Assembly: GCA_048941265.1 (NCBI GenBank)
Contig: JBHLNT010000024.1
Span: forward strand, 1 to 37,474
Direction of reading: 5' to 3'
DNA: 37,474 nt
DNA from: Promethearchaeota archaeon
GTDB lineage: Archaea; Asgardarchaeota; Lokiarchaeia; Sigyniarchaeales; SOKP01
Shown: piece by piece, positions 1 to 17,370 of the stretch
Layout of the letters: every line of letters begins with the position of its first letter
How positions within the stretch are numbered: the first letter of the stretch is position 1
Notes under the pieces: model-generated
Database searches by the model: none
Told to the model about the DNA's origin: nothing
Seen by the model: only the letters and a program-made list of their open reading frames with translations
Made by a program: the position numbers and the translations under genes

Positions 1-387
1 TTCAACTAGTTTACTAAATGTGCTGAAAAATTTCTCTGATAAGAATTCTTCGGTAAATGGCCAAGTTCCCATCAAGATATCTCCTGACTTTTTTTCATTT
101 CCAATCAAAAAACCTTTCCTTTTACCATCTTTTGATTTATAAAGGATGACAAAGTAGTAGTTGTAGGTAAGTAAAGAAGATTCTTTTCCCACTTTTATTA
201 CTTCTGATATATTTTGATAAGAAATTACATTTTGGTTTGATTTACTAATTTCTTTTAATTCTAAGATTAAATGGGAAGGAATATTTATTCTTTTATCAGA
301 TTTAAAACCTTTAAAAATTAAATGTAATTTAGTCTCATCTTTCTCTTTAATTCCTTTAAATATAACCTTATATATAGGAACACTCAT
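1..387 (-). CDS. Hypothetical protein, 3'-truncated by window edge (MSVPIYKVIFKGIKEKDETKLHL...KLVE)
   Basis: Manually translated: ATG at 387, open to base 1 (129 codons). Absent from the ORF track because it has no stop in the window. Divergent from the GTPase gene. Confidence 0.75.
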   Translation of the reverse strand, partial: MSVPIYKVIFKGIKEKDETKLHLIFKGFKSDKRINIPSHLILELKEISKSNQNVISYQNISEVIKVGKESSLLTYNYYFVILYKSKDGKRKGFLIGNEKKSGDILMGTWPFTEEFLSEKFFSTFSKLVE

Positions 388-613
388 ATTATTGAACTAA
401 ATGATTAGATACATTTGTATTTTATCTAGTTGCATAACATATATAGCATAAGATATATGACTAATGTATAATACTTGTTATAAAATCTTTAAATTCAATA
501 CTATTTAAATTGAAATTCAAAAATTCCACTCATAAATTTAACTTAAAAAAAAGATTTAAATTCAAATTTTTTGATATAATATGTAATATGATTTAAAGGG
601 GTAATAAAAAATT

Positions 614-1147
614 TTGCAGAGTTCATGGATTTTTAAAGTAATTGTAGCAGGTGCCGGCGGGGTTGGAAAAACAGCAATGATAACTCGCTATTGTACCGGA
701 AAATTTGAAGAAGGATATAAAATGACAATAGGTGCAGGATTCCATACAAAATCAGAAACTCTTGACACTGGAGAAGAAGTAAAGATGCAAATTTGGGATT
801 TTGCGGGAGAACGAAGATTTCGTGAACTATTACCTGATTATTGTAAGGGTGCTAGTGGTGCATTTATTTGTTTTGATATCACAGATTATGATACATTTAG
901 GCAAATACCAGAATGGTTGAAAATAATTCGCCAAAAAGCTGGCTTTATACCTATAATTCTTATGGGAATGAAATGGGATTTACCAAGTCATGAAACTGAT
1001 TATGATACTGCTAATGAATATGCTGAAAAAGCAAAGTGTAATCAATGCGTTTTTAGCTCGTCCAAGCAGGATATCAATATAAAAGAATCCTTTCAAGCTA
1101 TGGCGAAATGGCTAATATATTACGCCACAGAATTGGAAGAAAAATAA
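614..1147 (+). CDS. Rab/Ras-like small GTPase (Asgard type)
   Basis: G1 GAGGVGKT, G2 TIG, G3 WDFAGE, G4 MKWD, G5 SSK; FKVIVAG start and GASGAFICFDIT are Rab-like. No C-terminal Cys prenylation motif. TTG start. Confidence 0.92.
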   Translation: MQSSWIFKVIVAGAGGVGKTAMITRYCTGKFEEGYKMTIGAGFHTKSETLDTGEEVKMQIWDFAGERRFRELLPDYCKGASGAFICFDITDYDTFRQIPEWLKIIRQKAGFIPIILMGMKWDLPSHETDYDTANEYAEKAKCNQCVFSSSKQDINIKESFQAMAKWLIYYATELEEK

Positions 1148-1309
1148 AAATTCAACTTCTTCTTCTCTTTTCTCTAATAATTATCGTATTATGATCAATT
1201 CCAATTTTTGTAAGGAACGAACGAATTTAGAATAAATATAAACTTAAATCACAGCTAACCTTATTTAACAAAAAAAAACCCGTATTGTAAGATTTATCTT
1301 ATAGGGAAA

Positions 1310-1741
1310 TTAAATGATTTTTTCGCATTCAGTATTAATTAATTTAATAGTCTGGTTGAAATCTTGCCACCAATCCTGTCCTTGCTGAGCAACTAACATT
1401 GGTTCAATCTTTCGGGAATCAAGACATCTTATCTCATCTTTTTGAGCCTTAATTTTATCTTTCCATAATTGGCTGAATATATTTTGCAAATTTATTTTAA
1501 CTTTTTTTATTAATTCTTCATATGGCACCGAAACATCCTCTGTCTTCTGTAATTTCTGAAGTTGTTCAAACTTAATTCTTTCCTTTGCTTGGTTGAGGTC
1601 ATTGCAGTTAATTTCAATAGTAAAGGGATTTTCTTTACCATATTTACAGTGGTTTTGGATTTCACACTGACGACAATAACTCTCGAAACTTATCGAGTAA
1701 TCCTCCAGTCCAATTATAGAATAATGTAACACACCAGGCAT
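1310..1741 (-). CDS. Hypothetical protein with Cys cluster (CxxC-x5-C...C), possible metal binding
   Basis: Track ORF is 1310..1849. ATG at 1741 (MPGVLHYSIIG) is the more plausible start because the upstream part is AT-rich promoter-like sequence. Contains YCRQCEIQNHCKY. Confidence 0.6.
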   Translation of the reverse strand: MPGVLHYSIIGLEDYSISFESYCRQCEIQNHCKYGKENPFTIEINCNDLNQAKERIKFEQLQKLQKTEDVSVPYEELIKKVKINLQNIFSQLWKDKIKAQKDEIRCLDSRKIEPMLVAQQGQDWWQDFNQTIKLINTECEKII

Positions 1742-1896
1742 TAAAACAATCTTTTTACTTTTTATTAAAATTATATTCATATGATTATTAAAATTTAGGT
1801 ATGCTCTTGTCAAAAAATTTTTTAAACATTCAATCTTAGAATTATTCAATTTATACGATTTTTAATAATAATTAAAAAAGCAAATTTTTAATCAAA

Positions 1897-2003
1897 GCGA
1901 GAGTGGCTTAGCCTGGTATAGCGCACGGCTGATAACCGTGAGGTCGGGGGTTCGAAACAGAATGGGAATATCGCCCATTGCGAAAGGCCCCCCTTTCGCA
2001 CCA
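1897..2003 (+). tRNA. tRNA-Ile(GAT) with 30-nt intron at position 59/60 (1957..1986); CCA encoded
   Basis: Acceptor GCGAGAG/CTTTCGC. Anticodon arm CACGG-CTGATAA-CCGTG (GAT 1931-1933). T stem GGGGG/CCCCC. BHB: central helix TTCG/CGAA with 3-nt bulges AAA and AGG. Spliced T loop TTCGAAG; mature length 77 nt. Confidence 0.95.
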
Positions 2004-2079
2004 TTCTTGAGATTTCAAGATGAGCATGATTACTTTTTCATTACTTTTTTAATCCGATCTAACTATTATAAAATTATAG

Positions 2080-2688
2080 ATGAAAATAATTGTAATTTCT
2101 GGAACACCTGGTACGGGAAAAACATCTGTCTCAGAGATGATCGCTCAAATATACGATGCTAGAGTTGTGTCATTAAATGAGCCGAAAATTTTTAAAAAAT
2201 TTAAAATCAAATTTGATATTAAGCGAGAAACAGATGTAATTGATACGAATAAGTTACTCCCCCATGTTCTAAGTTTGATTCAGAATTACAAAAGCGAAAA
2301 CCCCAATTATCTTATAATCGAGGGTCATTTTTCTGATATAATACCTGAGGACTATATTGACTATGTAATCATATTAAGATGTGACCCTTACGTGTTAAAA
2401 AACCGGTTAGCAGAAAGGGGGTATGAATATGGAAAAATAATTGAAAATATACAAGCAGAAATTCTAGGAAATTGTGTGAATTATTTTGTTCAAAAAAACA
2501 TTAAGATTCCTCTATTTGAGATTAGTACTGACAATTTAACAATAGAATCGGTTGTAGATATTATTATGAAAAGTATTGTTAAAAACCAAAATGTCGATAA
2601 TTATGTAATTGGAAAAATTGATTGGCTAGAGAAATTATTTAGAGAGGATCGCTTAAATGATTTTTTTAATGAAAAAATAGCATTATAA
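2080..2688 (+). CDS. Adenylate kinase, AK6/Fap7 (hCINAP) family
   Basis: P-loop GTPGTGKT, hhhEGH motif (LIIEGH), ILRCDP..L..RL..RGY...KI.ENIQAEI. Confidence 0.9.
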   Translation: MKIIVISGTPGTGKTSVSEMIAQIYDARVVSLNEPKIFKKFKIKFDIKRETDVIDTNKLLPHVLSLIQNYKSENPNYLIIEGHFSDIIPEDYIDYVIILRCDPYVLKNRLAERGYEYGKIIENIQAEILGNCVNYFVQKNIKIPLFEISTDNLTIESVVDIIMKSIVKNQNVDNYVIGKIDWLEKLFREDRLNDFFNEKIAL

Positions 2689-2698
2689 AGGGTGTCAA

Positions 2699-4345
2699 AT
2701 GAAATACGAAATATTGGATATAGATGCTTTAGGGAGAGTTGGTAAATTAGAAATTAATAATAAACAAATGATTACTCCTACAATATTTCCTGTAGTCCAT
2801 CCATTTAAGAACATTGTCCCTCCATCAACATTGAAAAAAATTGGGGCTCAATGTATTTTCACAAATGCCTATATCATCTATCAAAAAGAGGAATTAAAAG
2901 AGGAGGTCAAAAACAAAAAGATCCATAATTTTCTGGGCTATAATGAGTTAATTGCCACGGATAGTGGAGCATTTCAGCAATATATGTACCATGATTCTGA
3001 ACTAAATGTAAGTCCAGAAGAGATTGAGCGCTTTCAAGAGGATATTGGCTCAGATTTCCCGGTCATTTTGGATCTACCCGTACAATTATACGACGAATAT
3101 AATGTTGCGAAACATAAAGTACTTGGCACGATTGAGAGGGCTAAAAATAATATCAAAAGAAGGACCACTACACGCTGTGAGTGGTTTGGTCCTATCCACG
3201 GCGCCCATTATCATGATCTTCTCAAATATTCTGCTGAAGAAATGAGTAAACTAGATTTTGGAATTTATGCGATAGGGGGATTAGTTAAAGCATTTTTGGA
3301 TTATAGATTTGACTTGACAATTAAAATTTTATTAAATGTAAAAAAACATATTATATCTAATAAACCATTACACATGTTCGGATTAGGGTTGCCACAATTT
3401 TTCTCATTAGCAGTAGCATGTGGATGTGATCTAATGGATTCGGCAGCTTACATTTTATATGCTAAAGAAAATCGATATTTCACCTTGTCAACGGGAACAA
3501 AACAATTAGATGAGTTGGAGGAGTTTCCTTGTTATTGTCCAATATGTTTAGAGTATACTCCGAAAGAACTAAAAAGCCTTGACAAAAAATTGAAAATCGA
3601 GTTATTAGCGAAACATAATTTATATCTTTCATTTTCTGAATTACGAACAATTCGACAAGCGATAAGAGAGGGTAATTTATGGGAGCTTGTAGAACAAAGA
3701 ATAAGGGCTCATCCAAATCTTGTAAAAGCAGCAAAAATTCTAAAGGACGAAAATTTACTGTTTGAAACATATGAAAAAATCTACAAGAAACACGGTAGAT
3801 TACTAACTGCACCCGAAAGTTCCTATAGACCATTAATCATGAGATTTCTTATTAGACTAGAGAATTACTATAGAGTTCCCAACACTGTAACTTTTTTACT
3901 GATCTTACCTGAGCTTGACGCTCGAATAGAGAGCTCTCCTACACTTCAAGAGTGGATGGAGAAATTAGATAAAAATAACATCGTATCCCGGGAAGAAATT
4001 CATATATTATTTAGCTCTCAATCTTTTGGATTAATCCCTTTTGAACTTATAAATACTTATCCAATGGGACAGTATGAATCGATCCTACCCTCAAATAATG
4101 AGGATATAATTTTTAACAAAACGATAAAAACGAGCATGAGCTTCCTAAACAATAATTCGGAACATTATCAAAAAGTAGGGATGGTAATTCCGAAGAGCTA
4201 TACCAATCAATTCGGGGAAAATGAACCATTTCTAACAAGTAAATTCATTCAAAGATTAAATTCAGTATTAAAAAACAAATTCAAATCAAATTTTCAAATA
4301 TCTCATAGTTTAGAAGAAATTTTACAATTTTTTAAAGGTGATTGA
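2699..4345 (+). CDS. tgtA: Archaeosine tRNA-guanine(15) transglycosylase (arcTGT), no PUA domain evident
   Basis: TDSGAFQ catalytic Asp, HMFGLG, GCDLMDSAAY, Zn site CYCPIC...HNL, IRQAIREGNLWELVEQR, FGLIPFEL..TYP. Confidence 0.92.
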   Translation: MKYEILDIDALGRVGKLEINNKQMITPTIFPVVHPFKNIVPPSTLKKIGAQCIFTNAYIIYQKEELKEEVKNKKIHNFLGYNELIATDSGAFQQYMYHDSELNVSPEEIERFQEDIGSDFPVILDLPVQLYDEYNVAKHKVLGTIERAKNNIKRRTTTRCEWFGPIHGAHYHDLLKYSAEEMSKLDFGIYAIGGLVKAFLDYRFDLTIKILLNVKKHIISNKPLHMFGLGLPQFFSLAVACGCDLMDSAAYILYAKENRYFTLSTGTKQLDELEEFPCYCPICLEYTPKELKSLDKKLKIELLAKHNLYLSFSELRTIRQAIREGNLWELVEQRIRAHPNLVKAAKILKDENLLFETYEKIYKKHGRLLTAPESSYRPLIMRFLIRLENYYRVPNTVTFLLILPELDARIESSPTLQEWMEKLDKNNIVSREEIHILFSSQSFGLIPFELINTYPMGQYESILPSNNEDIIFNKTIKTSMSFLNNNSEHYQKVGMVIPKSYTNQFGENEPFLTSKFIQRLNSVLKNKFKSNFQISHSLEEILQFFKGD

Positions 4346-9114: not shown

Positions 9115-11505
9115 TTATCTTCCTTTGGATTTGAATTTAGTATAAAGTGCTTTATCTAAAATTTTACCGATTTTTATCGCGATTTGCTTAGCAATTTGAA
9201 ATCGTTCACCTTCAATCATACTATTAATTTCCTCTTGAGAAGGTGCATGATTTAATCTCTTTTCTAATTCTTTTTTAACAAGATCAATGATAATTACCTT
9301 TATCTTCTCGTTATTAGGGATATTAATATCGGAAAAAGCTCTTAATTTTTCCATGGCAAATTGAAAATATTCGATAAATGAATCAGTAGTATCTCTACCT
9401 AATTCACTATGCAATTTAATATTATCTGTAGCTGTTTTTGTATCTTTTTCCTGCCAATATAACTGAGTTGGATTAATTCCAGGGCTATTTATTCTCATTA
9501 AAGAAGAGGTTATCCTTCTCTCTATCCAATTAAGGGTACTTATCTCTTGTTTTTCACGTATCCTCTTCTTTTGCTCACTCTTAATTTTTTCTTTTTCCTC
9601 AATAATTTGTTCTACTTTTAATTTACGCAATACTTCAAATGCTTCAAATCTCTTAACTAAATCATATGCAATACAATAAGATACAGGAGATATAATATCT
9701 TGTTTTAATTTTAATGGTTTTATATCATCATAAATAGGACTTGTATTTTCTTTTAATTCAGAGATTCCTTCATTTATACTTAAATCTTTAATTCTAGCTA
9801 AGATGAAACCATTTACGAGGAAGGGTTGATTATCAGCATTAAATACTATTACTAACTCTTTTTGCCTTTTTAAAAGTCGATTTATAACTAATTCCTCAAG
9901 TTTTATTCTAACCCATTCCTCTGATTCGGTAGTTCCAGATATTTTTTTGAATGCCACAAGAAATAGCGCTTTATCGTTAGTAATTTTTAGGAACAATTCA
10001 ATAATTCTACTTATTTGTCTAATTATTTTAGTAAAAAGATAATAAAAGATATCCTTTACTAAATTATTTATTATATCATCAAAATTCAATAGTAATAACA
10101 ATTGAGAATAACTTTTTAATTGTAATTCTTGTAAAAACACTTTATCAATAATTTCTTTCTTTCGTACAAAATCTCTCAAATCATTTAATTTAATCCCATT
10201 TATTTCTTCTATATTTCTCCAAATCTCTTGAAGCTTGTCGTTTTCTAAATATAAAACTTCTTCTAAATTAAATTCAGAAAAATTATTGGAATCTTTTAAA
10301 AACTCATCTATATTAGAATAATCCAAATCACATATTGCTTTTTTTGTTAATAATAACAAATTTTTCCTTTCTGCATTCAATGACATGATATCAAATTTGT
10401 CAATATTATATCTTATCATACTTTTTTTAACTTTTTGAGCTAGTTCTTCATCCACATTTATTAAATGTAAGATATTATAGACTCCATATTTATTTAAAAT
10501 ATAAATTATTTCATTAAACCCACACTCATTTAAACTCTGCAAAAAGTAAATAAAATCATTTGGATTCGTCTTAAGCTTTTTAATTACTTCTGATTTTAGA
10601 AATTCTAAAACTTTTTTTTCAAATTGATCGTAATTTATCTTTTTATTTAGAGCATTGCTAATCTTATCAACCAATTGTATTTTTAAACTATTTGTCTCTA
10701 AAAATGTAGTTAAACCAGGAAGGGAAATTGGAAAACGATTAAAATTATATTCCATAATCTTTCGTTTAATCATTCTAACTGGCATATTTTGCATTTGTAG
10801 TTCTTTATACGATTTAAATTCAAAATTTACCTGTAATTGATTAATTAATCGATTTAATGTAGATAATTCTATAAATTTATCCTCCTTTTCCTCTCGCTCC
10901 AATTTTTTTTCAATTTCAATAGACAGGTCTTTAAACGCTGAGCTCTCTTCTAAAATATTAATTTTTATGTCATTTGAAAGCCCCATTAAATCCCCCATTA
11001 AATCATAGAAATAAAAAGGGGGATATTTTAATATAATCTCTAATAGATTTTGCTCAATAAAATTATCGATCTCATTAATTTTCTGGGTTTTTTGTAAATC
11101 ATTAAATAAAGATTTTGTATCATTAATTAAGAAGGAAATAATCTGGTTTTCCAAATTGATCGATCTTTTTAATATATCAATTTCTAATGTTAAAGAATCT
11201 TTTAATAATAAAGAAATTTCCTCGGATAATATTTTTTTTTCTAAAATTTCTAAATTTTTCGATGAATCAGTAGAGATATGACTAGCTTCCATACTATCTC
11301 TAACCCTAATCCCTAAATTGTGATATATATGAATAGCAGATGTAGCAATTAATAGATCTTTAAGTGTGGTTTCTTGACTAGTTAATTCAAATATCTTTTG
11401 TCGATCTGCCTCCCTTTTAAAATGATTGATGATAAGATCTACTGTTTGAAAAAATCTAAAAGTACTTTCTATAGCAGTTGTTTTTCTTTTAATTCCACTA
11501 ATCAT
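9115..11505 (-). CDS. Large hypothetical, mostly alpha-helical protein
   Basis: About 800-codon ORF. Start placed at ATG 11505 (MISGIKRK), which overlaps the upstream TGA (ATGA) and follows GGGTGA. Confidence 0.8.
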   Translation of the reverse strand: MISGIKRKTTAIESTFRFFQTVDLIINHFKREADRQKIFELTSQETTLKDLLIATSAIHIYHNLGIRVRDSMEASHISTDSSKNLEILEKKILSEEISLLLKDSLTLEIDILKRSINLENQIISFLINDTKSLFNDLQKTQKINEIDNFIEQNLLEIILKYPPFYFYDLMGDLMGLSNDIKINILEESSAFKDLSIEIEKKLEREEKEDKFIELSTLNRLINQLQVNFEFKSYKELQMQNMPVRMIKRKIMEYNFNRFPISLPGLTTFLETNSLKIQLVDKISNALNKKINYDQFEKKVLEFLKSEVIKKLKTNPNDFIYFLQSLNECGFNEIIYILNKYGVYNILHLINVDEELAQKVKKSMIRYNIDKFDIMSLNAERKNLLLLTKKAICDLDYSNIDEFLKDSNNFSEFNLEEVLYLENDKLQEIWRNIEEINGIKLNDLRDFVRKKEIIDKVFLQELQLKSYSQLLLLLNFDDIINNLVKDIFYYLFTKIIRQISRIIELFLKITNDKALFLVAFKKISGTTESEEWVRIKLEELVINRLLKRQKELVIVFNADNQPFLVNGFILARIKDLSINEGISELKENTSPIYDDIKPLKLKQDIISPVSYCIAYDLVKRFEAFEVLRKLKVEQIIEEKEKIKSEQKKRIREKQEISTLNWIERRITSSLMRINSPGINPTQLYWQEKDTKTATDNIKLHSELGRDTTDSFIEYFQFAMEKLRAFSDINIPNNEKIKVIIIDLVKKELEKRLNHAPSQEEINSMIEGERFQIAKQIAIKIGKILDKALYTKFKSKGR

Positions 11506-13805
11506 ATTTCTTTCACCCATTCTCGGTATACTTCTCGAAAATTATCGGATATATCGCTTTTAAAATTATTTGACCAAAATCTAAAATTAAATACATGAAA
11601 TAAATCCGCTTTAAATAACTCTCTTTCTTCATTAGTTAAATTATGTTTTAAAATTAATGAAAGCGGTCTAGGAATTAATTTAGAGAAGTATTTTAATTCC
11701 ATCTCTTTTAAATAATTATGAAATGTATCAGTCTCATCTAATTTAAGAAAGTTAATCGGTAGATGTTGTTCAAAATCAGGATTTAGTGTATCAATTTCTT
11801 TTTCTATGATTTTTTTAATATACTTTGGAAATTCCATTTTAATTTTATTACAAAATTCATATTGCTTAAAAAATTCTATTAAATAACTCTTTTCATCCAC
11901 ATTTGTTAATTGAGCAATATATCCGTCAAGAAACTTTAAAAACATCTCTGTCTGCTGTTCTTTACTTTCTCTATCCTCAAAATATTTAATAAAATCTCTA
12001 TAAATTTCTTCTAAAGACCATTGTTTATCGTCTGTTAATCTTAAAAATTTTTTCCCATAATCTTTAATCCAGTCTAAAATATATGTTTTCCAAACTAAGT
12101 TAATACCCCCTATCCTCTTCTCTAAAAATCTATGAAATCTGTTAGCAAATGTAACTGGATCAGATATTTCATCATCTGGTTCTTCTTTCAAGTAGCGATT
12201 AATAGTAGTATACCTCAAAAGATAACTTAAAAGATAATGTAATTCATTTGAAAATTTCTTAAATTTTTCAATGTGGATTTTAATAATATTTGGATCTTTT
12301 TCCATTAATACTTCTGCGAACGATACTAGATCACTAATATTTAATTCAATATTTTCAAAAAAATTTTCAAGGTTTTGATTTATTAAACTTTTAAATGCTT
12401 TTATTAAGTTTTTCTCGTTAAATTTAATGCTTTTAGACAATAATATTGGATTTATTTCTATTTGATTAAAAAGAAATGTATTAAATTTTTCCATAAACTT
12501 ATTTCCTAAATTTTTAGCAGGCTTTTGTTCCTTATCAAAAATCTCTTTTATTTTATTAATAAATTCTATTGTTAAGGTCTTTAATCTCCTTCGAGATAAA
12601 TATTTTGGTAAAGCTTTATTGATTGACTCTAAACTATTTTTAATCACTTCCAAGAAATAATAAATTACCGAATTTAAATCTATTACACGCAATTTTTCTT
12701 TTTGAATTATGGTATTTTTAATAGACTTAATTGCAATTTCACATATATCTTCGAAATTTTCGTTTTCAAGTTTGCCCTTCTCGATAAAAAATTGCTTATA
12801 TTTTTCTAAAAGTTCTGTTAAACTACCCATATCTCCCGAGCCAAGAAAATTCATAGAATATTCTATAAATTTATTTAAGAAACTTTCCAGATCCCCCAAA
12901 ATTTTATGTACCTCATTAATTACTCTCTCTGCAGTGTCTGGAATAGTTACAATTTTGATTTTTTCTTCAATATGAGTGATGAGATAAGATATTATTTCAT
13001 CTTGGGATTCGTCAATTGTTCCAGTATTCGCCAGATTTATAAGATTAGTTCCTAGTTTTAACGTATTCTCAATTACAAAGTTAGCACTTGGTTGAGATAT
13101 TGAAAATTTTAAATGATCGATCGCAGATTGTCTCTCGAATGGTGTATTTAACCTTTCGAATTTAGGATTTAAAATTTTAATTTCATAAGGTCTTTTATAC
13201 CATAAAATCTCGAATTTGGATTTTAATGAAGCGTCAATATTTAACATTTCTTTTTCTGTTGGAAGGGACACGCTTAAACCAACTAATTTTTTATTCCATT
13301 TATCTTCAATTAAGTCTCCAAAGAGTTTTTTACCAAATCGCGATGCAAATTTTTTAAATATTAGTACTTTTTCCTCTTTTACCAAATCAGGACGGTTGGT
13401 AAATTCCTCTACTTCGTAAAAGAGTTCACTAATTTTATTAATCTCATCCCTAGACTTATGAGTATTTAAAAATCCTGTCTCAGGTTTTAAAGCAAGGAGT
13501 AAACTTTCACAATCCTTATATTGACCCGGTATTAAAATCATAGACCTTGGATATATATTAATCTGAGCACTTTCATCTATATTATACAGCTCAAATTCAA
13601 TAGAAAAAACTTCAGATCCAGTATAATCCCTTAACATTGCATTATACATCCTCAAGAATTGTATAACTGACAAAGAAAGCTCATTTACTCTCTCTTTTGT
13701 TAATTTACCAGGGCCTATAACATCCCCTACAATTATATCATTTGGAGAGGAATACCCAAAAATTAATGAAAATTGATAATTAATTGACTCTCTAGTAGTT
13801 ATCAT
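11502..13805 (-). CDS. Large hypothetical protein
   Basis: Track ORF runs to 13856 (TTG); ATG at 13805 (MITTRESINYQF) preferred. No motif recognised. Confidence 0.8.
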   Translation of the reverse strand: MITTRESINYQFSLIFGYSSPNDIIVGDVIGPGKLTKERVNELSLSVIQFLRMYNAMLRDYTGSEVFSIEFELYNIDESAQINIYPRSMILIPGQYKDCESLLLALKPETGFLNTHKSRDEINKISELFYEVEEFTNRPDLVKEEKVLIFKKFASRFGKKLFGDLIEDKWNKKLVGLSVSLPTEKEMLNIDASLKSKFEILWYKRPYEIKILNPKFERLNTPFERQSAIDHLKFSISQPSANFVIENTLKLGTNLINLANTGTIDESQDEIISYLITHIEEKIKIVTIPDTAERVINEVHKILGDLESFLNKFIEYSMNFLGSGDMGSLTELLEKYKQFFIEKGKLENENFEDICEIAIKSIKNTIIQKEKLRVIDLNSVIYYFLEVIKNSLESINKALPKYLSRRRLKTLTIEFINKIKEIFDKEQKPAKNLGNKFMEKFNTFLFNQIEINPILLSKSIKFNEKNLIKAFKSLINQNLENFFENIELNISDLVSFAEVLMEKDPNIIKIHIEKFKKFSNELHYLLSYLLRYTTINRYLKEEPDDEISDPVTFANRFHRFLEKRIGGINLVWKTYILDWIKDYGKKFLRLTDDKQWSLEEIYRDFIKYFEDRESKEQQTEMFLKFLDGYIAQLTNVDEKSYLIEFFKQYEFCNKIKMEFPKYIKKIIEKEIDTLNPDFEQHLPINFLKLDETDTFHNYLKEMELKYFSKLIPRPLSLILKHNLTNEERELFKADLFHVFNFRFWSNNFKSDISDNFREVYREWVKEI

Positions 13806-14069
13806 TCTATCATTCTTGCATACTTTTATTTCTATTAAATTTTCAATAAATTTCAAAATATCTTTTGCTAACTACTATAAAAAAAATGGATTTGTATTTT
13901 AAACCTTTGTAAGTTTCAAAATAAACTATAAATTTAATTTTTTAAAATTAATCAAAATCAAATAAATAAGATTTTTAATATTAAATTTTATAATATTAAT
14001 AACGACTATTATTACTTAATTTTCATTCATATAAAATCTCTAAGGAAATTACTCAAAAGGTGATATAAC

Positions 14070-14474
14070 ATCCAGTTCGGAAGTGACCTTGGAATAGATC
14101 AATCTGATATTGAGAAGATTAGCCCACAAATTACGTTTATCACGTCTAATGCTGATATTGAGGCAATAGCATTAGTTTCACAAGAAGGGTATCAAATAGC
14201 GTTTAGTGCTTTACCACAATATCATGTTGATGGCGATCAATTTTGTGGGCTCGCATCAGCATTATTGATGACAGGGCGGTCAACAATTCAGAGTTTATTT
14301 CAAGAGGATTTAAGTGAAATCATAGTGCGGGCACAAGATGGGTATATTGTTATATCTAATGCAGGTAGGTTGGTGATTGTATGCGCAGGTACAATGATTG
14401 ATACTTTAATGAAAACTGTGAAAGTAATGAGAATCGCTGCGAAGAATTTATATAAGATTTTTGAAGGCAGATGA
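14070..14474 (+). CDS. Roadblock/LC7 domain protein (134 aa if started at ATC 14070)
   Basis: Frame is open upstream of the track start (14265) back to TGA 14061. It encodes DIEAIALVSQEGYQIAFSA...DGDQFCGLASALL, the first half of a roadblock fold. AGGTGA at 14058-14063 precedes ATC. Confidence 0.8.
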   Translation: MQFGSDLGIDQSDIEKISPQITFITSNADIEAIALVSQEGYQIAFSALPQYHVDGDQFCGLASALLMTGRSTIQSLFQEDLSEIIVRAQDGYIVISNAGRLVIVCAGTMIDTLMKTVKVMRIAAKNLYKIFEGR

Positions 14475-14549
14475 GCAAAATTTTCTGATAAAAATTAATT
14501 AACTTTTTAAATCTTGATATATAAATTTTCTTAATATTTTTCTATGATA

Positions 14550-14660
14550 TGGTTTAGCACTAATGGTACCTGTAAATAATTTGGCTTGGCGTTGGCAGTG
14601 GACTTGGCGTTGGCGATAACGCCTCTGCATTGGACTAAACCACGAAATCTTTCTTTTTTT
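14550..14660 (+). promoter_or_regulatory. Putative Trp-responsive attenuator leader (alternative helices plus U-tract)
   Basis: TGGTTTAG(14550-57)/CTAAACCA(14635-42); CTAATG/CATTGG; GGCGTT x2 versus AACGCC(14618-23); TCTTTCTTTTTTT 14648-14660; TATA-like TATATAAA at 14518-14525. Confidence 0.7.
14563..14619 (+). CDS. Trp-rich leader peptide MVPVNNLAWRWQWTWRWR
   Basis: ATG 14563, TAA 14617-14619; five TGG codons among the last ten; ends 171 nt upstream of trpB2 on the same strand. Confidence 0.85.
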   Translation: MVPVNNLAWRWQWTWRWR

Positions 14661-14790
14661 GAAAAAAATTCTTGAAAATTTGACATAATTTTATTAAAAT
14701 TATCAAATGTGCATTACTGATTTTGATTTCCAAAATTAAGATGAGACACATTTAAAATGTGCTTAAAAAAAATAAGATAAGGTAATTAAA

Positions 14791-16191
14791 ATGGTGGATT
14801 ATTTTAATTCTAGGATATTATTACAACCCAATGAGGTACCAAAGGAATGGATAAACATATTACCAGATTTACCATCTCCTATGACGCCCTTAGTTAATCC
14901 AATGGATGGGAAACCAGCACCACCAGAACTGGCATTTGCAATATTTCCAAAAGAGTGTGTCTTACAGGAAGTATCTCAAGAGCCACTAATTCCCATTCCT
15001 AATGAATTGAGGGAAATCTATGCAAAAACCTATAGACCAAGTCCACTCCATCGTGCATTAGGTTTAGAGAAAGAACTAGGAATAGAGGGAGAAAATATTC
15101 AGATCTATTATAAAAATGAGTCTTATTCTCCAACAGGTTCTCATAAACCTAATACTGCCATAGCTCAAGCCTTCTATGCCAAAAAAGATGGATTAGAGGA
15201 ATTAGTTACAGAAACAGGAGCTGGACAATGGGGCTCAGGGCTTGCTTATGGATGTAATTTATTTGGGCTTAAATGTACGGTCTATATGGTAAGAGCAAGC
15301 TTCGATCAAAAACCAGGCAGAAAGATTTTAATGAGGGCTTACGATGCTGAAGTTCATGCGAGTCCATCGAGATTTACTGAATCAGGAAAAGCATTTTTAG
15401 AAAAAGTTCCCAATCATCCTGGAAGTTTAGGAATAGCTATTTCAGAAGCTGTTGAGCATAGCATGAGAAGTGACAAAATAAGATATTCTCTTGGTAGTGT
15501 AGTGAATTTTGTTTTGCTGCACCAAACAATAGTGGGTCAAGAGGCAAAAATTCAACTAGATAAAATAGGGATTAAACCTGATATTGTAATTGGTTGCATG
15601 GGAGGAGGTTCTAATTTTTCGGGCTTAATGATTCCTTTTGCAAGAGATAAACTGCATGGAATTCTTCCAGATGTCGAAATTATCGGGGTAGAACCAAGAG
15701 CATGCCCAAGTGTTTGTAAAGGAGAGTATAGATGGGATTTTGGTGATACCTCCATGAAAGGTCCTATTGTAAAAATGCATACTTTGGGCCATACATTTAT
15801 TCCAAGTCCGATTCACGCAGGGGGCTTAAGATATCATGGTATAGCACCAATAATATCGATTTTACATAATAATCATATCATATCTTCTGCAATGCATCAT
15901 CAGAGGGAAGTTATTGAAGCCGGAATTCGATTTACAAAAGCTGAAGGAATAATCCCTGCTCCTGAAACTGCTCATGCAATAAAAGAAACAATAGATCAAG
16001 CATTAAAAGCAAAAGAAAATAATGAGAAAAAAGTAATCTTGTTTAATTTCAGTGGACATGGATTTTTAGATCTGTTAGCTTATAAAGAATACATGACTGG
16101 AGATTTAAAAGATTATGAATTACCCTCAGAAGATATTCTAAAAGCACTTTCCTCACCTGAAATGCCAAAAATAGATGAATCTCAATTTTAA
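14791..16191 (+). CDS. trpB2: Tryptophan synthase beta chain, TrpB2 type (PLP enzyme)
   Basis: YKNESYSPTGSHKPNTA (PLP lysine), TETGAGQWG, HPGSLGIAISEA, GGGSNF, IHAGGLRYHG, FNFSGHG; long N-terminus typical of TrpB2; no adjacent trpA. Confidence 0.95.
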   Translation: MVDYFNSRILLQPNEVPKEWINILPDLPSPMTPLVNPMDGKPAPPELAFAIFPKECVLQEVSQEPLIPIPNELREIYAKTYRPSPLHRALGLEKELGIEGENIQIYYKNESYSPTGSHKPNTAIAQAFYAKKDGLEELVTETGAGQWGSGLAYGCNLFGLKCTVYMVRASFDQKPGRKILMRAYDAEVHASPSRFTESGKAFLEKVPNHPGSLGIAISEAVEHSMRSDKIRYSLGSVVNFVLLHQTIVGQEAKIQLDKIGIKPDIVIGCMGGGSNFSGLMIPFARDKLHGILPDVEIIGVEPRACPSVCKGEYRWDFGDTSMKGPIVKMHTLGHTFIPSPIHAGGLRYHGIAPIISILHNNHIISSAMHHQREVIEAGIRFTKAEGIIPAPETAHAIKETIDQALKAKENNEKKVILFNFSGHGFLDLLAYKEYMTGDLKDYELPSEDILKALSSPEMPKIDESQF

Positions 16192-16293: not shown

Positions 16294-17370
16294 TTGAATT
16301 TAATTTCTTTTATAATTCTGAGTTTCTTATACTTTTATGGATTAATAATGTTAAAGATTTCGTTTTTAGCAAAAAAAAATGGAGAAAAAAAAGCGTTTGT
16401 TAATAACATAACGATATCTTTAATTTTTATAGTATCTCTTACAATTAATTTTCTAATTGTTAGTTTTTTAACCCCGCATACTATAAATTTTATTGTCTTT
16501 CCATTTGATATATTTATGATTAGTTTTATTGTCACATTTTTACCTTTCTTTTATCTTTTAATATTAAAGGAAAAAAGAAAGACCAACCAATTAGAAGTAA
16601 TTGTACATTTAGCTTTAAAAGAATTGCCGTTAAAATATGATATTTATAGGAAATTAACCCATTTGGTTGTTTTAGCCATTATTCTATTTTACTTTACTCT
16701 TGGATTTTTAGTTAAAAATTTTTTCGTTTATCTTTTAAATTTTTTTCCCCCTATCATTTCAGATATTTTTTATTCTGTTTATTCAATCGAAAAAAATCCC
16801 ATGATTTTTACCCAGTATTTAGTAGTTTTTCTAGTAGGAATTTCATTAATCGGACTTCTTACTGCTGAATTCGTAAGAATTTTAAAACCCAAGCTATACC
16901 CTTTAAAACCTGTCAATCAAATATTAAGAGAAGAAGAATTACATATGAGATTAGGCCCTCAGATATCTACGGCTGTTGGATGTTTCTCAATAATTGTTTT
17001 ATATGGTTTATTTCAACCCATAGGACCTCTGATAATCTGTACATCAATGACAATGGCAATATTTGGTGATATAGCTTCTAATTTAATAGGAAGAACAGTT
17101 GGAAATAAATATAAATATATAAGGGGCACTAAAAAGACATATATAGGATTAATAGCTGGGATTATTGCTGCATTCTTCTCAGGAATAATTATTTTAATTC
17201 TTTTATGTGAATTTTACAATATAAGTCTCTTAGGTCTTATATTCTTACCATTAATAGGAGCAATAATCATTGGAATATTAGATTACGTAGATTTAGAAAT
17301 TGATGACAATCTAACATATGTTTTTGTGATATCAACGATATTGTTCTTTATATCCTTTCTAATATTATAA
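16294..17370 (+). CDS. CTP-dependent polyprenol/diacylglycerol kinase family membrane protein (dolichol/phytol kinase-like)
   Basis: RKLTHL, FGDIASNLIGR..G...KKTYIG, IDDNL motifs; multiple TM helices. Confidence 0.8.
   Translation: MNLISFIILSFLYFYGLIMLKISFLAKKNGEKKAFVNNITISLIFIVSLTINFLIVSFLTPHTINFIVFPFDIFMISFIVTFLPFFYLLILKEKRKTNQLEVIVHLALKELPLKYDIYRKLTHLVVLAIILFYFTLGFLVKNFFVYLLNFFPPIISDIFYSVYSIEKNPMIFTQYLVVFLVGISLIGLLTAEFVRILKPKLYPLKPVNQILREEELHMRLGPQISTAVGCFSIIVLYGLFQPIGPLIICTSMTMAIFGDIASNLIGRTVGNKYKYIRGTKKTYIGLIAGIIAAFFSGIIILILLCEFYNISLLGLIFLPLIGAIIIGILDYVDLEIDDNLTYVFVISTILFFISFLIL

Follow-up and report, generated by a model that had tools for sequence, protein, structure and literature searches.

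We analysed a window of 37,474 nucleotides (nt), which is contig JBHLNT010000024.1 (positions 1 to 37,474) of the Promethearchaeota archaeon assembly GCA_048941265.1. Upstream of trpB2, the gene for a tryptophan synthase beta-2 protein, it carries an unannotated open reading frame (ORF) of 18 codons at 14563-14619, five of which are Trp codons. We consider it likely that this ORF is a translated leader peptide gene, which senses charged tRNA-Trp in cis for trpB2 and acts in a trpL-like manner. Sequence comparison reveals a conserved ORF, co-varying pairing around it, an association with three kinds of trp transcription unit, and regular positions of TATA-like motifs and T-runs.

The leader ORF reads ATG GTA CCT GTA AAT AAT TTG GCT TGG CGT TGG CAG TGG ACT TGG CGT TGG CGA TAA. 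The TGG codons start at 14587, 14593, 14599, 14605 and 14611 and alternate strictly with other codons. They make up 5 of the 18 codons, compared with 0.54% Trp (14 of 2582 residues) in five neighbouring ORFs. The stop codon is 171 nt from the ATG of trpB2 (14791), on the same strand. The trpB2 product scores 639.7 bits against NCBIfam NF009057 (cut-off 366) and 589.9 bits against TIGR01415 (cut-off 518.85), and is assigned to PALP by Pfam. The G+C content of 14583-14643 is 0.574, whereas that of the flanking intergenic DNA is 0.17 and 0.19. Arginine is encoded by CGT, CGT and CGA in the leader; in the five neighbouring ORFs, 74 of 93 Arg codons (80%) are AGA or AGG. The original prediction had described an 18-codon ORF with alternating TGG codons, a GC-rich island in AT-rich DNA, unusual Arg codons and a spacing of 171 nt to a tryptophan synthase beta-2 gene. 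The sequence with its frame listing, the codon counts, the coordinates and the profile scores agree with it in each respect.

The upstream regions of trpB2 were compared in two samples. In the first, trpB2 orthologues were located in 40 of 41 related genomes, and 600 nt upstream of each were read. Within the family of our genome, 14 of 20 trpB2 loci have a short ORF with 3-6 Trp codons, and 6 do not; examples of the peptides are MATVNNWAWRWQWPWRWR, MSNLFNFAWQWRWRWI, MAALRIISWQWPWHWQ and MKLLILNGWHWHWRC. The second sample took one genome per species and comprised 58 Promethearchaeota trpB2 loci, in which we looked for a small ORF (sORF) with at least 3 Trp codons within 500 nt upstream. Such an sORF precedes trpB2 in 48 of these genomes, and its stop lies 133-177 nt before the trpB2 ATG. 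The 10 other loci consist of one that is N-masked, one with a 2-Trp variant, three that look like deletions and five with nothing. All three deletion-like loci belong to the genus of our genome, and one of them (L150) retains the 3' part of the element. Beyond our family, but within its order, 9 trpB2 loci could be evaluated; 8 of these carry a longer ORF whose peptide ends in W-A-W or W-P-W and whose stop codon lies at or in a hairpin, 115-357 nt upstream of trpB2. Among 22 control loci of trpB2 from bacteria, Bathyarchaeota and Hadarchaeum, two gave incidental matches under a looser rule. The comparison of Asgard trp genes proposed with the original prediction is therefore positive, at 48 of 58 trpB2 loci and also before trpD-C-F, trpA-E-G and trpA, as described below.

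For the reading frame itself, we compared a set of 55 distinct upstream regions that carry a leader. An ATG in frame, located 4 codons or more before the first Trp and with no intervening stop, is found in the Trp frame in 49 of the 55 and in the shifted frames in 0 and 1; the ATG figure is partly circular, because the set had been preselected for the presence of some start codon, and the contrast between frames and the position of the stop are not circular. A stop codon within 3 codons past the last Trp is found in 51 of 55 in the Trp frame, and in 0 and 1 in the shifted frames. The peptides are 12-28 residues long (median 17, n=55). Three Trp codons are present in 11 sequences, four in 31, five in 12 and six in 1. 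Although 53 of the 55 peptides are distinct, Trp is fixed, and strict W-x-W-x-W spacing is kept in 51. The residues between the Trp residues are Q (53), P (40), R (34), C (15), H (8), A (4), L (3), T (1) and S (1). Start, frame and stop are kept in the Trp frame only, which indicates that the ORF is under selection as a reading frame.

Leaders of this kind are not confined to trpB2. We built a covariance model, R1, of the segment from the Trp run to the 3' arm of the leader (alignment A3) and searched it over the 41 relatives. It matched the trpB2 leaders and, in addition, sites about 3 kb upstream of TrpB1. The leaders MTTELRYFWRWQWPWRA, MATENNCFWSWQWPWRWQ, MHAYKFKLGWQWPWRFE and MSTVKLIYFRWQWLWRA precede genes confirmed by Pfam as TrpD, TrpC and TrpF. 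By the same assignment, MNGKGKYTRFLPITWFWAWRWRA sits before TrpD, and a leader of another type, MNNKKEHHCFYKITWFWDWPWHA (..ITWFWDWPWHA), sits before TrpA-TrpE-TrpG. One further site is a degenerate form with two Trp codons. The association thus extends to three kinds of trp transcription unit. No leader lies immediately upstream of TrpB1 within the flanks examined at 18 loci; TrpB1 is located inside operons, and their leader is the one about 3 kb upstream. Across the phylum (151 genomes, E <=0.001), R1 matches 21 of 25 genomes of our family, compared with 0-1 per family elsewhere. Being too sequence-specific, the model misses the shorter W-x-W forms that are seen by eye in the other families of the order. 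We read 16 further matches of the phylum-wide search. Fifteen are upstream of trpB2 homologues, and one genome has two trpB2 copies with a leader before each. The weakest (L196) has neither a leader nor a downstream ORF. Five R1 matches (L093, L094, L095, L100 and L101) lie within coding regions and were discarded as false positives.

We also scanned our own genome (5.0 Mb) for intergenic ATG ORFs of 8-32 codons that have at least 4 identical residues in 8 and lie at most 400 nt before a long ORF. Exactly two Trp-type matches were found, one before trpB2 and one before trpA; the same scan of this genome found no His-type leader. The second leader, MTELNKNCDFYKITWFWIWRWHA, is 143 nt from trpA (PF00290, 255 bits). 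The same contig, C147, carries a truncated trpA duplicate of 118 residues (3330-3686, minus strand). In the leader copy upstream of this duplicate the ATG context is lost, and two TGG codons have become TAG and TGA. This is what relaxed selection on the reading frame would give, in a single case. A six-frame scan added a third leader, MSTVKLFYFRWQWPWRA, on contig C307, only 51 nt of which remain beyond it. A genome of the same genus has, ahead of trpD-trpC-trpF, a leader with two residue differences from this one, and the two genomes also share the DNA past the leader up to the contig end. The trp operon of our genome has probably fallen into an assembly gap, as C147 starts with the C-terminus of a TrpB1. 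Searches of this genome (91% complete) gave neither IGPS nor Chorismate_bind. Because of this completeness, the C307 leader near a contig end and the opening of C147 with the TrpB1 C-terminus, we do not read this result as absence.

The leader RNA is predicted to form an outer stem, P1, and an inner hairpin, P2. P1 is paired in the minimum free energy (MFE) structure of our own sequence. Among 14 single-sequence MFE structures of family members, 13 have an outer stem around the whole ORF, and all 14 have an inner hairpin that spans the last Trp codons together with the stop codon. The C, A and T of the CAT in the 3' arm of P1 are among the nearly invariant columns of alignment A1. The arms themselves vary between genera. 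Examples are GGUUUAG/CUAAACC, AAUAGUCC/GGACUAUU and AUAUCCUAU/AUAGGAUA for the outer stem, and GGCGUU/AACGCC, GCGCG/CGCGC and GUGUUUU/AAAACAC for the inner hairpin. We compared the pairing of each 5' arm with its own 3' arm and with the 3' arms of other genomes, using 500 permutations. The outer stem has a mean energy of -8.44 kcal/mol with its own arms, compared with -6.44 +/- 0.30 kcal/mol for swapped arms, and none of the 500 permutations was as low. For the inner hairpin the values are -10.84 and -9.74 +/- 0.26 kcal/mol, again with 0 of 500 as low. The predicted folds contain competing pairings: the start region pairs either with the Trp run or with CAUUGG, and the last Trp codons pair with the arm past the stop. 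The odd CGT and CGA codons for Arg are accounted for by the pairing of GGCGUU (14606-14611) with AACGCC (14618-14623).

A candidate promoter and a candidate termination signal lie on either side of the hairpin. In the 55 sequences, TATA-like motifs are most frequent 50-69 nt ahead of the leader ATG, with 30 and 22 sequences in the two 10-nt bins, whereas within 130 nt of the trpB2 ATG no bin exceeds 8 of 55. These are looser positional counts; a stricter promoter expression matched 15 of 55. In our own sequence, TTTAAAA at 14752-14758 could be a second TATA element. Archaeal RNA polymerase terminates at oligo-T tracts, and this termination needs no hairpin. A T-run of at least 5 is present in the 50 nt after the leader in 45 of the 55 sequences, compared with 6 for an A-run of at least 5, the strand-symmetric control. 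Stop codon and T-run are separated by a median of 32 nt (interquartile range 31-39 nt).

The spacer between the leader and trpB2 holds further candidate hairpins. Its first predicted hairpin (P3) is rich in A and U, and the MFE structures of relatives have analogous AU-rich hairpins with different sequences. It is followed by a conserved block, block 2, which forms a hairpin or palindrome (P4). For the first helix of block 2 in 53 sequences, 87.1% of cells are paired, compared with 26-60% when the partner is slid. Pair 30-57 is UA in 40 sequences, UG in 7, CG in 5 and AU in 1, with none unpaired; pair 28-59 is unpaired in 10. Block 2 is also present after trpD-type leaders. The last element is a palindrome or hairpin around TTTAAAA (P5). 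In relatives its sequence is CACATCTTAAGATGTG or TCACC..GGTGA, and two RNA contigs of relatives end 3 and 15 nt downstream of it. P5 may be a hairpin of the 5' untranslated region (UTR) or a promoter/operator. The palindromes at 14712-14761 as a whole could be RNA helices of the same transcript or a DNA operator/promoter, and a protein operator here may coexist with the leader as a second layer. Coordinates of all features are given in Table 1.

Table 1. Features of the leader region, the proposed regulated gene and related short reading frames (positions refer to the window unless a contig is named)
Feature	Position	Strand	Basis or remark
Candidate BRE/TATA element (transcription factor B recognition element and TATA box), AACTTTTTAAA	14501-14511	+	starts 62 nt before leader ATG; putative promoter
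P1 5' arm (UGGUUUAG-CA-CUAAUG), includes leader start codon and possible GGU ribosome-binding site	14550-14565	+	MFE
Leader ORF, MVPVNNLAWRWQWTWRWR, then stop	14563-14619	+	ATG 14563, TAA 14617-14619, Trp codons 14587-14613
P2 inner hairpin (GGCGUU / AACGCC), last two Trp codons and stop codon	14606-14623	+	MFE structures
P1 3' arm (CAUUGG-A-CUAAACCA), CAU pairs with leader AUG	14628-14642	+	MFE structures, arm test
T-tract TTTCTTTTTTT, candidate archaeal oligo-T termination signal	14650-14660	+	position of T-run; putative terminator
P3 AU-rich spacer hairpin (UUUGACAUAAUUUUA / UAAAAUUAUCAAA)	14679-14707	+	read from sequence
P4, conserved block 2, hairpin or palindrome (GCAUUA..UUGAUUUCCAA..UAAUG)	14712-14743	+	pairing count
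P5 palindrome or hairpin (CACAU-UUAAA-AUGUG) around TTTAAAA	14747-14761	+	read from sequences
trpB2 (TrpB-like pyridoxal phosphate enzyme), proposed regulated gene	14791-16191	+	NCBIfam, Pfam
trpA leader, MTELNKNCDFYKITWFWIWRWHA, then stop	contig C147 1176-1247	minus	trpA at 197-1033 (minus)
Third leader of own genome, MSTVKLFYFRWQWPWRA, then stop	contig C307 52-108	minus	51 nt from contig end
Leu-run sORF, MISNNNMKNSLSLQILSKVLLLLLL, then stop	contig C41 3320-3397	minus	leucyl-tRNA synthetase (LeuRS) at 346-3124 (minus), Pfam confirmed

Transcription and translation are coupled in archaea. On the reading that we favour, RNA synthesis would start from the promoter about 60 nt upstream, and the first 110 nt could fold as a long hairpin. 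Its outer stem, P1, would pair the 5' UTR and the AUG with a segment past the ORF, and P2 would take in the last Trp codons and the stop codon. With an ample Trp supply, the ribosome would finish the ORF fast, the hairpin would close with the AUG buried inside it, and RNA polymerase would stop at the T-tract. When charged tRNA-Trp is scarce, the ribosome would stall on the five alternating UGG codons (14587-14613) and cover the inner hairpin. It would thereby block closure of the outer stem while RNA polymerase crosses the T-tract some 30-40 nt further on, and trpB2 would be transcribed. We favour control of termination because the ORF lies wholly inside the closing hairpin, with its Trp codons at the 3' end, beside P2 and the 3' arm. 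The stalled ribosome may then itself be the antiterminator, so that a separate antiterminator helix would be unneeded. The ribosome-mediated attenuation of the original prediction is supported by the conserved Trp frame, the hairpins, the TATA-like motif and the T-run. Translation, stalling and termination are steps that we infer, as are the response to Trp and the direction and level of control.

Several observations weigh against this mechanism. In the metatranscriptome data, RNA contigs from relatives (90-95% alike) are confined to trpB2 and leave the leader uncovered. Two RNA contigs from two studies end at 14764 and 14776, just before trpB2; one run, probably of DNA, extends to 14695. These data are assembled contigs (X15-X18), by which transcript starts and ends are not shown and a small leader RNA would be missed. 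The ends just before trpB2 are a weak hint of a 5' end or a processing site at that position, and they point towards a trpB2 transcript start downstream of 14660, which the original prediction had named as evidence against it. Block 2 persists in trpB2 loci that have no leader, so trpB2 can be expressed without one. The + strand of our own sequence folds no better than its shuffles (z = -0.89; 39 of 200 equal it), while the minus strand scores z = -2.13 against its own shuffles. The structure therefore rests on the comparison between genomes. There, too, one subgroup has a weak outer stem (-1.9 to -4.9 kcal/mol in 3 of 11 example duplexes); in this subgroup the first codons (AUGGCAACUG) pair instead with CAGUGGCC of the Trp run. 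RNAalifold on the plain MAFFT alignments A1 and A2 recovered almost nothing of the stems. This can be traced to the 5' arms, which are unaligned in A1 and A2, and single-sequence folds and the arm test were used in its place. The fold comparison yielded no clear terminator and antiterminator helices that exclude each other. The arm test shares the preselected set of the frame test, and the relatives in it are not mutually independent. Lastly, synonymous sites in the Trp run are constrained, with CAG in 52 of 53 Gln codons, CCT in 37 of 40 Pro codons and CGT in 32 of 34 Arg codons. The run is thus also an RNA sequence element and more than a string of Trp codons. The predicted pairings of the Trp run with the start region, and of the last Trp codons with the arm past the stop, would account for the fixed sites.

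The main alternative keeps stalling at UGG codons as the sensor and moves the output to a post-transcriptional step, in which the 5' UTR with P3, P4 and P5 would be remodelled so as to affect translation initiation, processing or stability of trpB2. We regard it as unlikely. It would give a role to the approximately 170 nt of conserved and partly paired sequence that separate the leader from trpB2. By reading of the sequence, AUUGGA after the ORF is complementary to UCCAAU in block 2, and GCAUU is present in both; the RNA contig ends near 14764-14776 could mark a processing site. However, this long-range pairing is putative, the trpA-type leader has a different downstream region that lacks block 2, and a strand-specific T-run at a fixed distance past the stop fits termination. 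The constraint on the codons between the Trp codons suggests another reading, in which UGGC repeats every 6 nt form an array for an RNA-binding protein of the TRAP type or for tRNA-Trp, and the ORF is incidental. Those codons begin with C in 138 of 159 cases, which creates the UGGC repeats, and TRAP of Bacillus binds triplet repeats with short spacers. Such an array would not explain why the ATG, the open frame and the stop within 3 codons past the run are kept in the Trp frame only. The spacing is always exactly 3 nt (strict alternation in 51 of 55), and much of the nucleotide constraint is explained by two pairings, one between CAGUGGCC and AUGGCAACUG and the other between the last Trp codons and the arm past the stop. 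TrpBP/TRAP (PF02081) was not found in our genome (91% complete) by a search that was positive in Bacillus subtilis as a control, and there is no T-box or other Rfam match. We therefore consider the array very improbable.

The TATA-like motif and the T-run could also belong to a free-standing small gene or small RNA, whose peptide or RNA of about 110 nt acts in trans, with the trpB2 promoter in the 14747-14761 palindrome under a DNA-binding repressor. The occurrence of block 2 and the palindrome without a leader in some genomes, and RNA contigs that stop just upstream of trpB2, would agree with this. Bacterial attenuator products, such as peTrpL and rnTrpL, are reported to be able to act in trans (PMC7298713, PMC6614838). 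Against a unit of this kind, leader and trp gene share a strand in every case, with the leader at a fixed spacing of 133-177 nt ahead of the gene, and leaders precede three kinds of trp unit. The peptide is unconserved except for Trp (53 of 55 distinct), and most relatives have no TATA-like motif between the leader and trpB2. Its chances appear slight. A chance ORF in a tandem repeat deserves practically no credence. The run is indeed a TGGCNT hexamer repeat whose copy number varies among relatives, but conservation across genera, frame-specific start and stop codons, the exclusive association with trp genes and the low rate of incidental matches at control loci (2 of 22) contradict it.

Two further identities for the element were rejected. 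One is a tRNA or a known noncoding RNA. ARAGORN found no tRNA in the window. The Rfam covariance models, including Trp_leader, T-box and other leader families, gave no match at the gathering score over the whole window; at 14400-14800 there were only unrelated families, all below threshold with at most 19.8 bits. A repeat or mobile element was rejected because the 126-nt element is single-copy as DNA in the 5.0 Mb genome. The next-best DNA match to it in this genome is a 20-nt piece of the C307 leader, with E = 0.08.

Leader-peptide attenuation is a textbook bacterial mechanism, and it needs a ribosome closely behind the RNA polymerase. The Asgard leader resembles the enterobacterial trpL (Rfam Trp_leader) and the bacterial his, leu, thr, phe and pheST attenuators in having a short ORF rich in cognate codons, in its place within a structured 5' leader, with a hairpin and a U/T tract after it, and in the proposed logic, by which ribosome stalling reports charged tRNA. 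It differs from trpL in several ways. It has no Rfam sequence or structure match, and its host is an archaeon, with a putative promoter and terminator of archaeal type. It has 3-6 Trp codons in strict W-x-W spacing, where trpL has tandem WW. The closing hairpin encloses its entire ORF, and a four-segment terminator/antiterminator layout was not found. TRAP/mtrB of the Bacillus trp genes has in common with it a repeated triplet with short spacers in a trp leader RNA. Here, however, the triplet is UGG and not GAG/UAG, it is in frame within an ORF, and the TrpBP family was not found in the genome. The archaeal trp controls described in the relevant part of PMC6737238, the repressor TrpY of Methanothermobacter and the activator Tar of Thermococcus, are DNA-binding proteins that act at promoters. 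They share the pathway and the domain of life with the Asgard element, which is an RNA leader with a putative translated ORF. Leaderless polycysteine sORF attenuators of mycobacteria, as outlined in bioRxiv 10.1101/834739, are alike in that a short ORF rich in a single amino acid senses for the operon of that pathway. That system, as outlined there, is bacterial and leaderless and concerns a different amino acid. Full-text literature searches, with subscription journals and supplementary files outside their scope, returned no report of an archaeal leader-peptide attenuator.

If our reading is correct, the leader would represent a natural cis-regulatory read-out of transcription-translation coupling, the first from archaea. 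It would offer a handle on archaeal termination at oligo-T tracts. It would also be a simple reporter of amino-acid starvation for organisms that are very hard to study genetically. The finding flags unannotated small ORFs that annotation of these metagenome-assembled genomes has overlooked. More tentatively, and with some doubt on our part, Promethearchaeota may run their whole Trp regulon (trpB2, trpD-C-F-B, trpA-E-G) by ribosome-mediated attenuation, with the ORF nested in a terminator hairpin and the stalled ribosome as antiterminator. The same mode might perhaps extend to other genes, as a Leu-run leader before leucyl-tRNA synthetase suggests. On this reading, coupling would be read out directly in the closest prokaryotic relatives of eukaryotes, by a system that evolved independently of bacterial attenuators.

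The Leu-run sORF is an ORF of 25 codons, MISNNNMKNSLSLQILSKVLLLLLL, which ends in VLLLLLL (CTA and five TTA) before its stop codon and is followed by a strong hairpin. In our genome it lies 196 nt upstream of the leucyl-tRNA synthetase gene. It is also present, at 193-199 nt, in four other genomes, three of them from the same genus and the fourth from another, which makes 5 of 26 loci; at the other 21 it was not seen. It may serve leuS as a Leu leader, or be an AT-rich microsatellite common to close relatives.

Directly upstream of the leader region, at 14067-14474 (+), there is a gene with a Roadblock/LC7 domain (PF03259, 31.6 bits). In many relatives the trpB2 leader region likewise follows a gene with this C-terminal end, which points to conserved synteny. 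Further upstream, 9115-13856 (minus) holds two large ORFs of 801 and 784 amino acids, and 16294-17370 (+), beside trpB2, holds an ORF of 358 amino acids; Pfam assigned none of the three to a family at E <=0.001.

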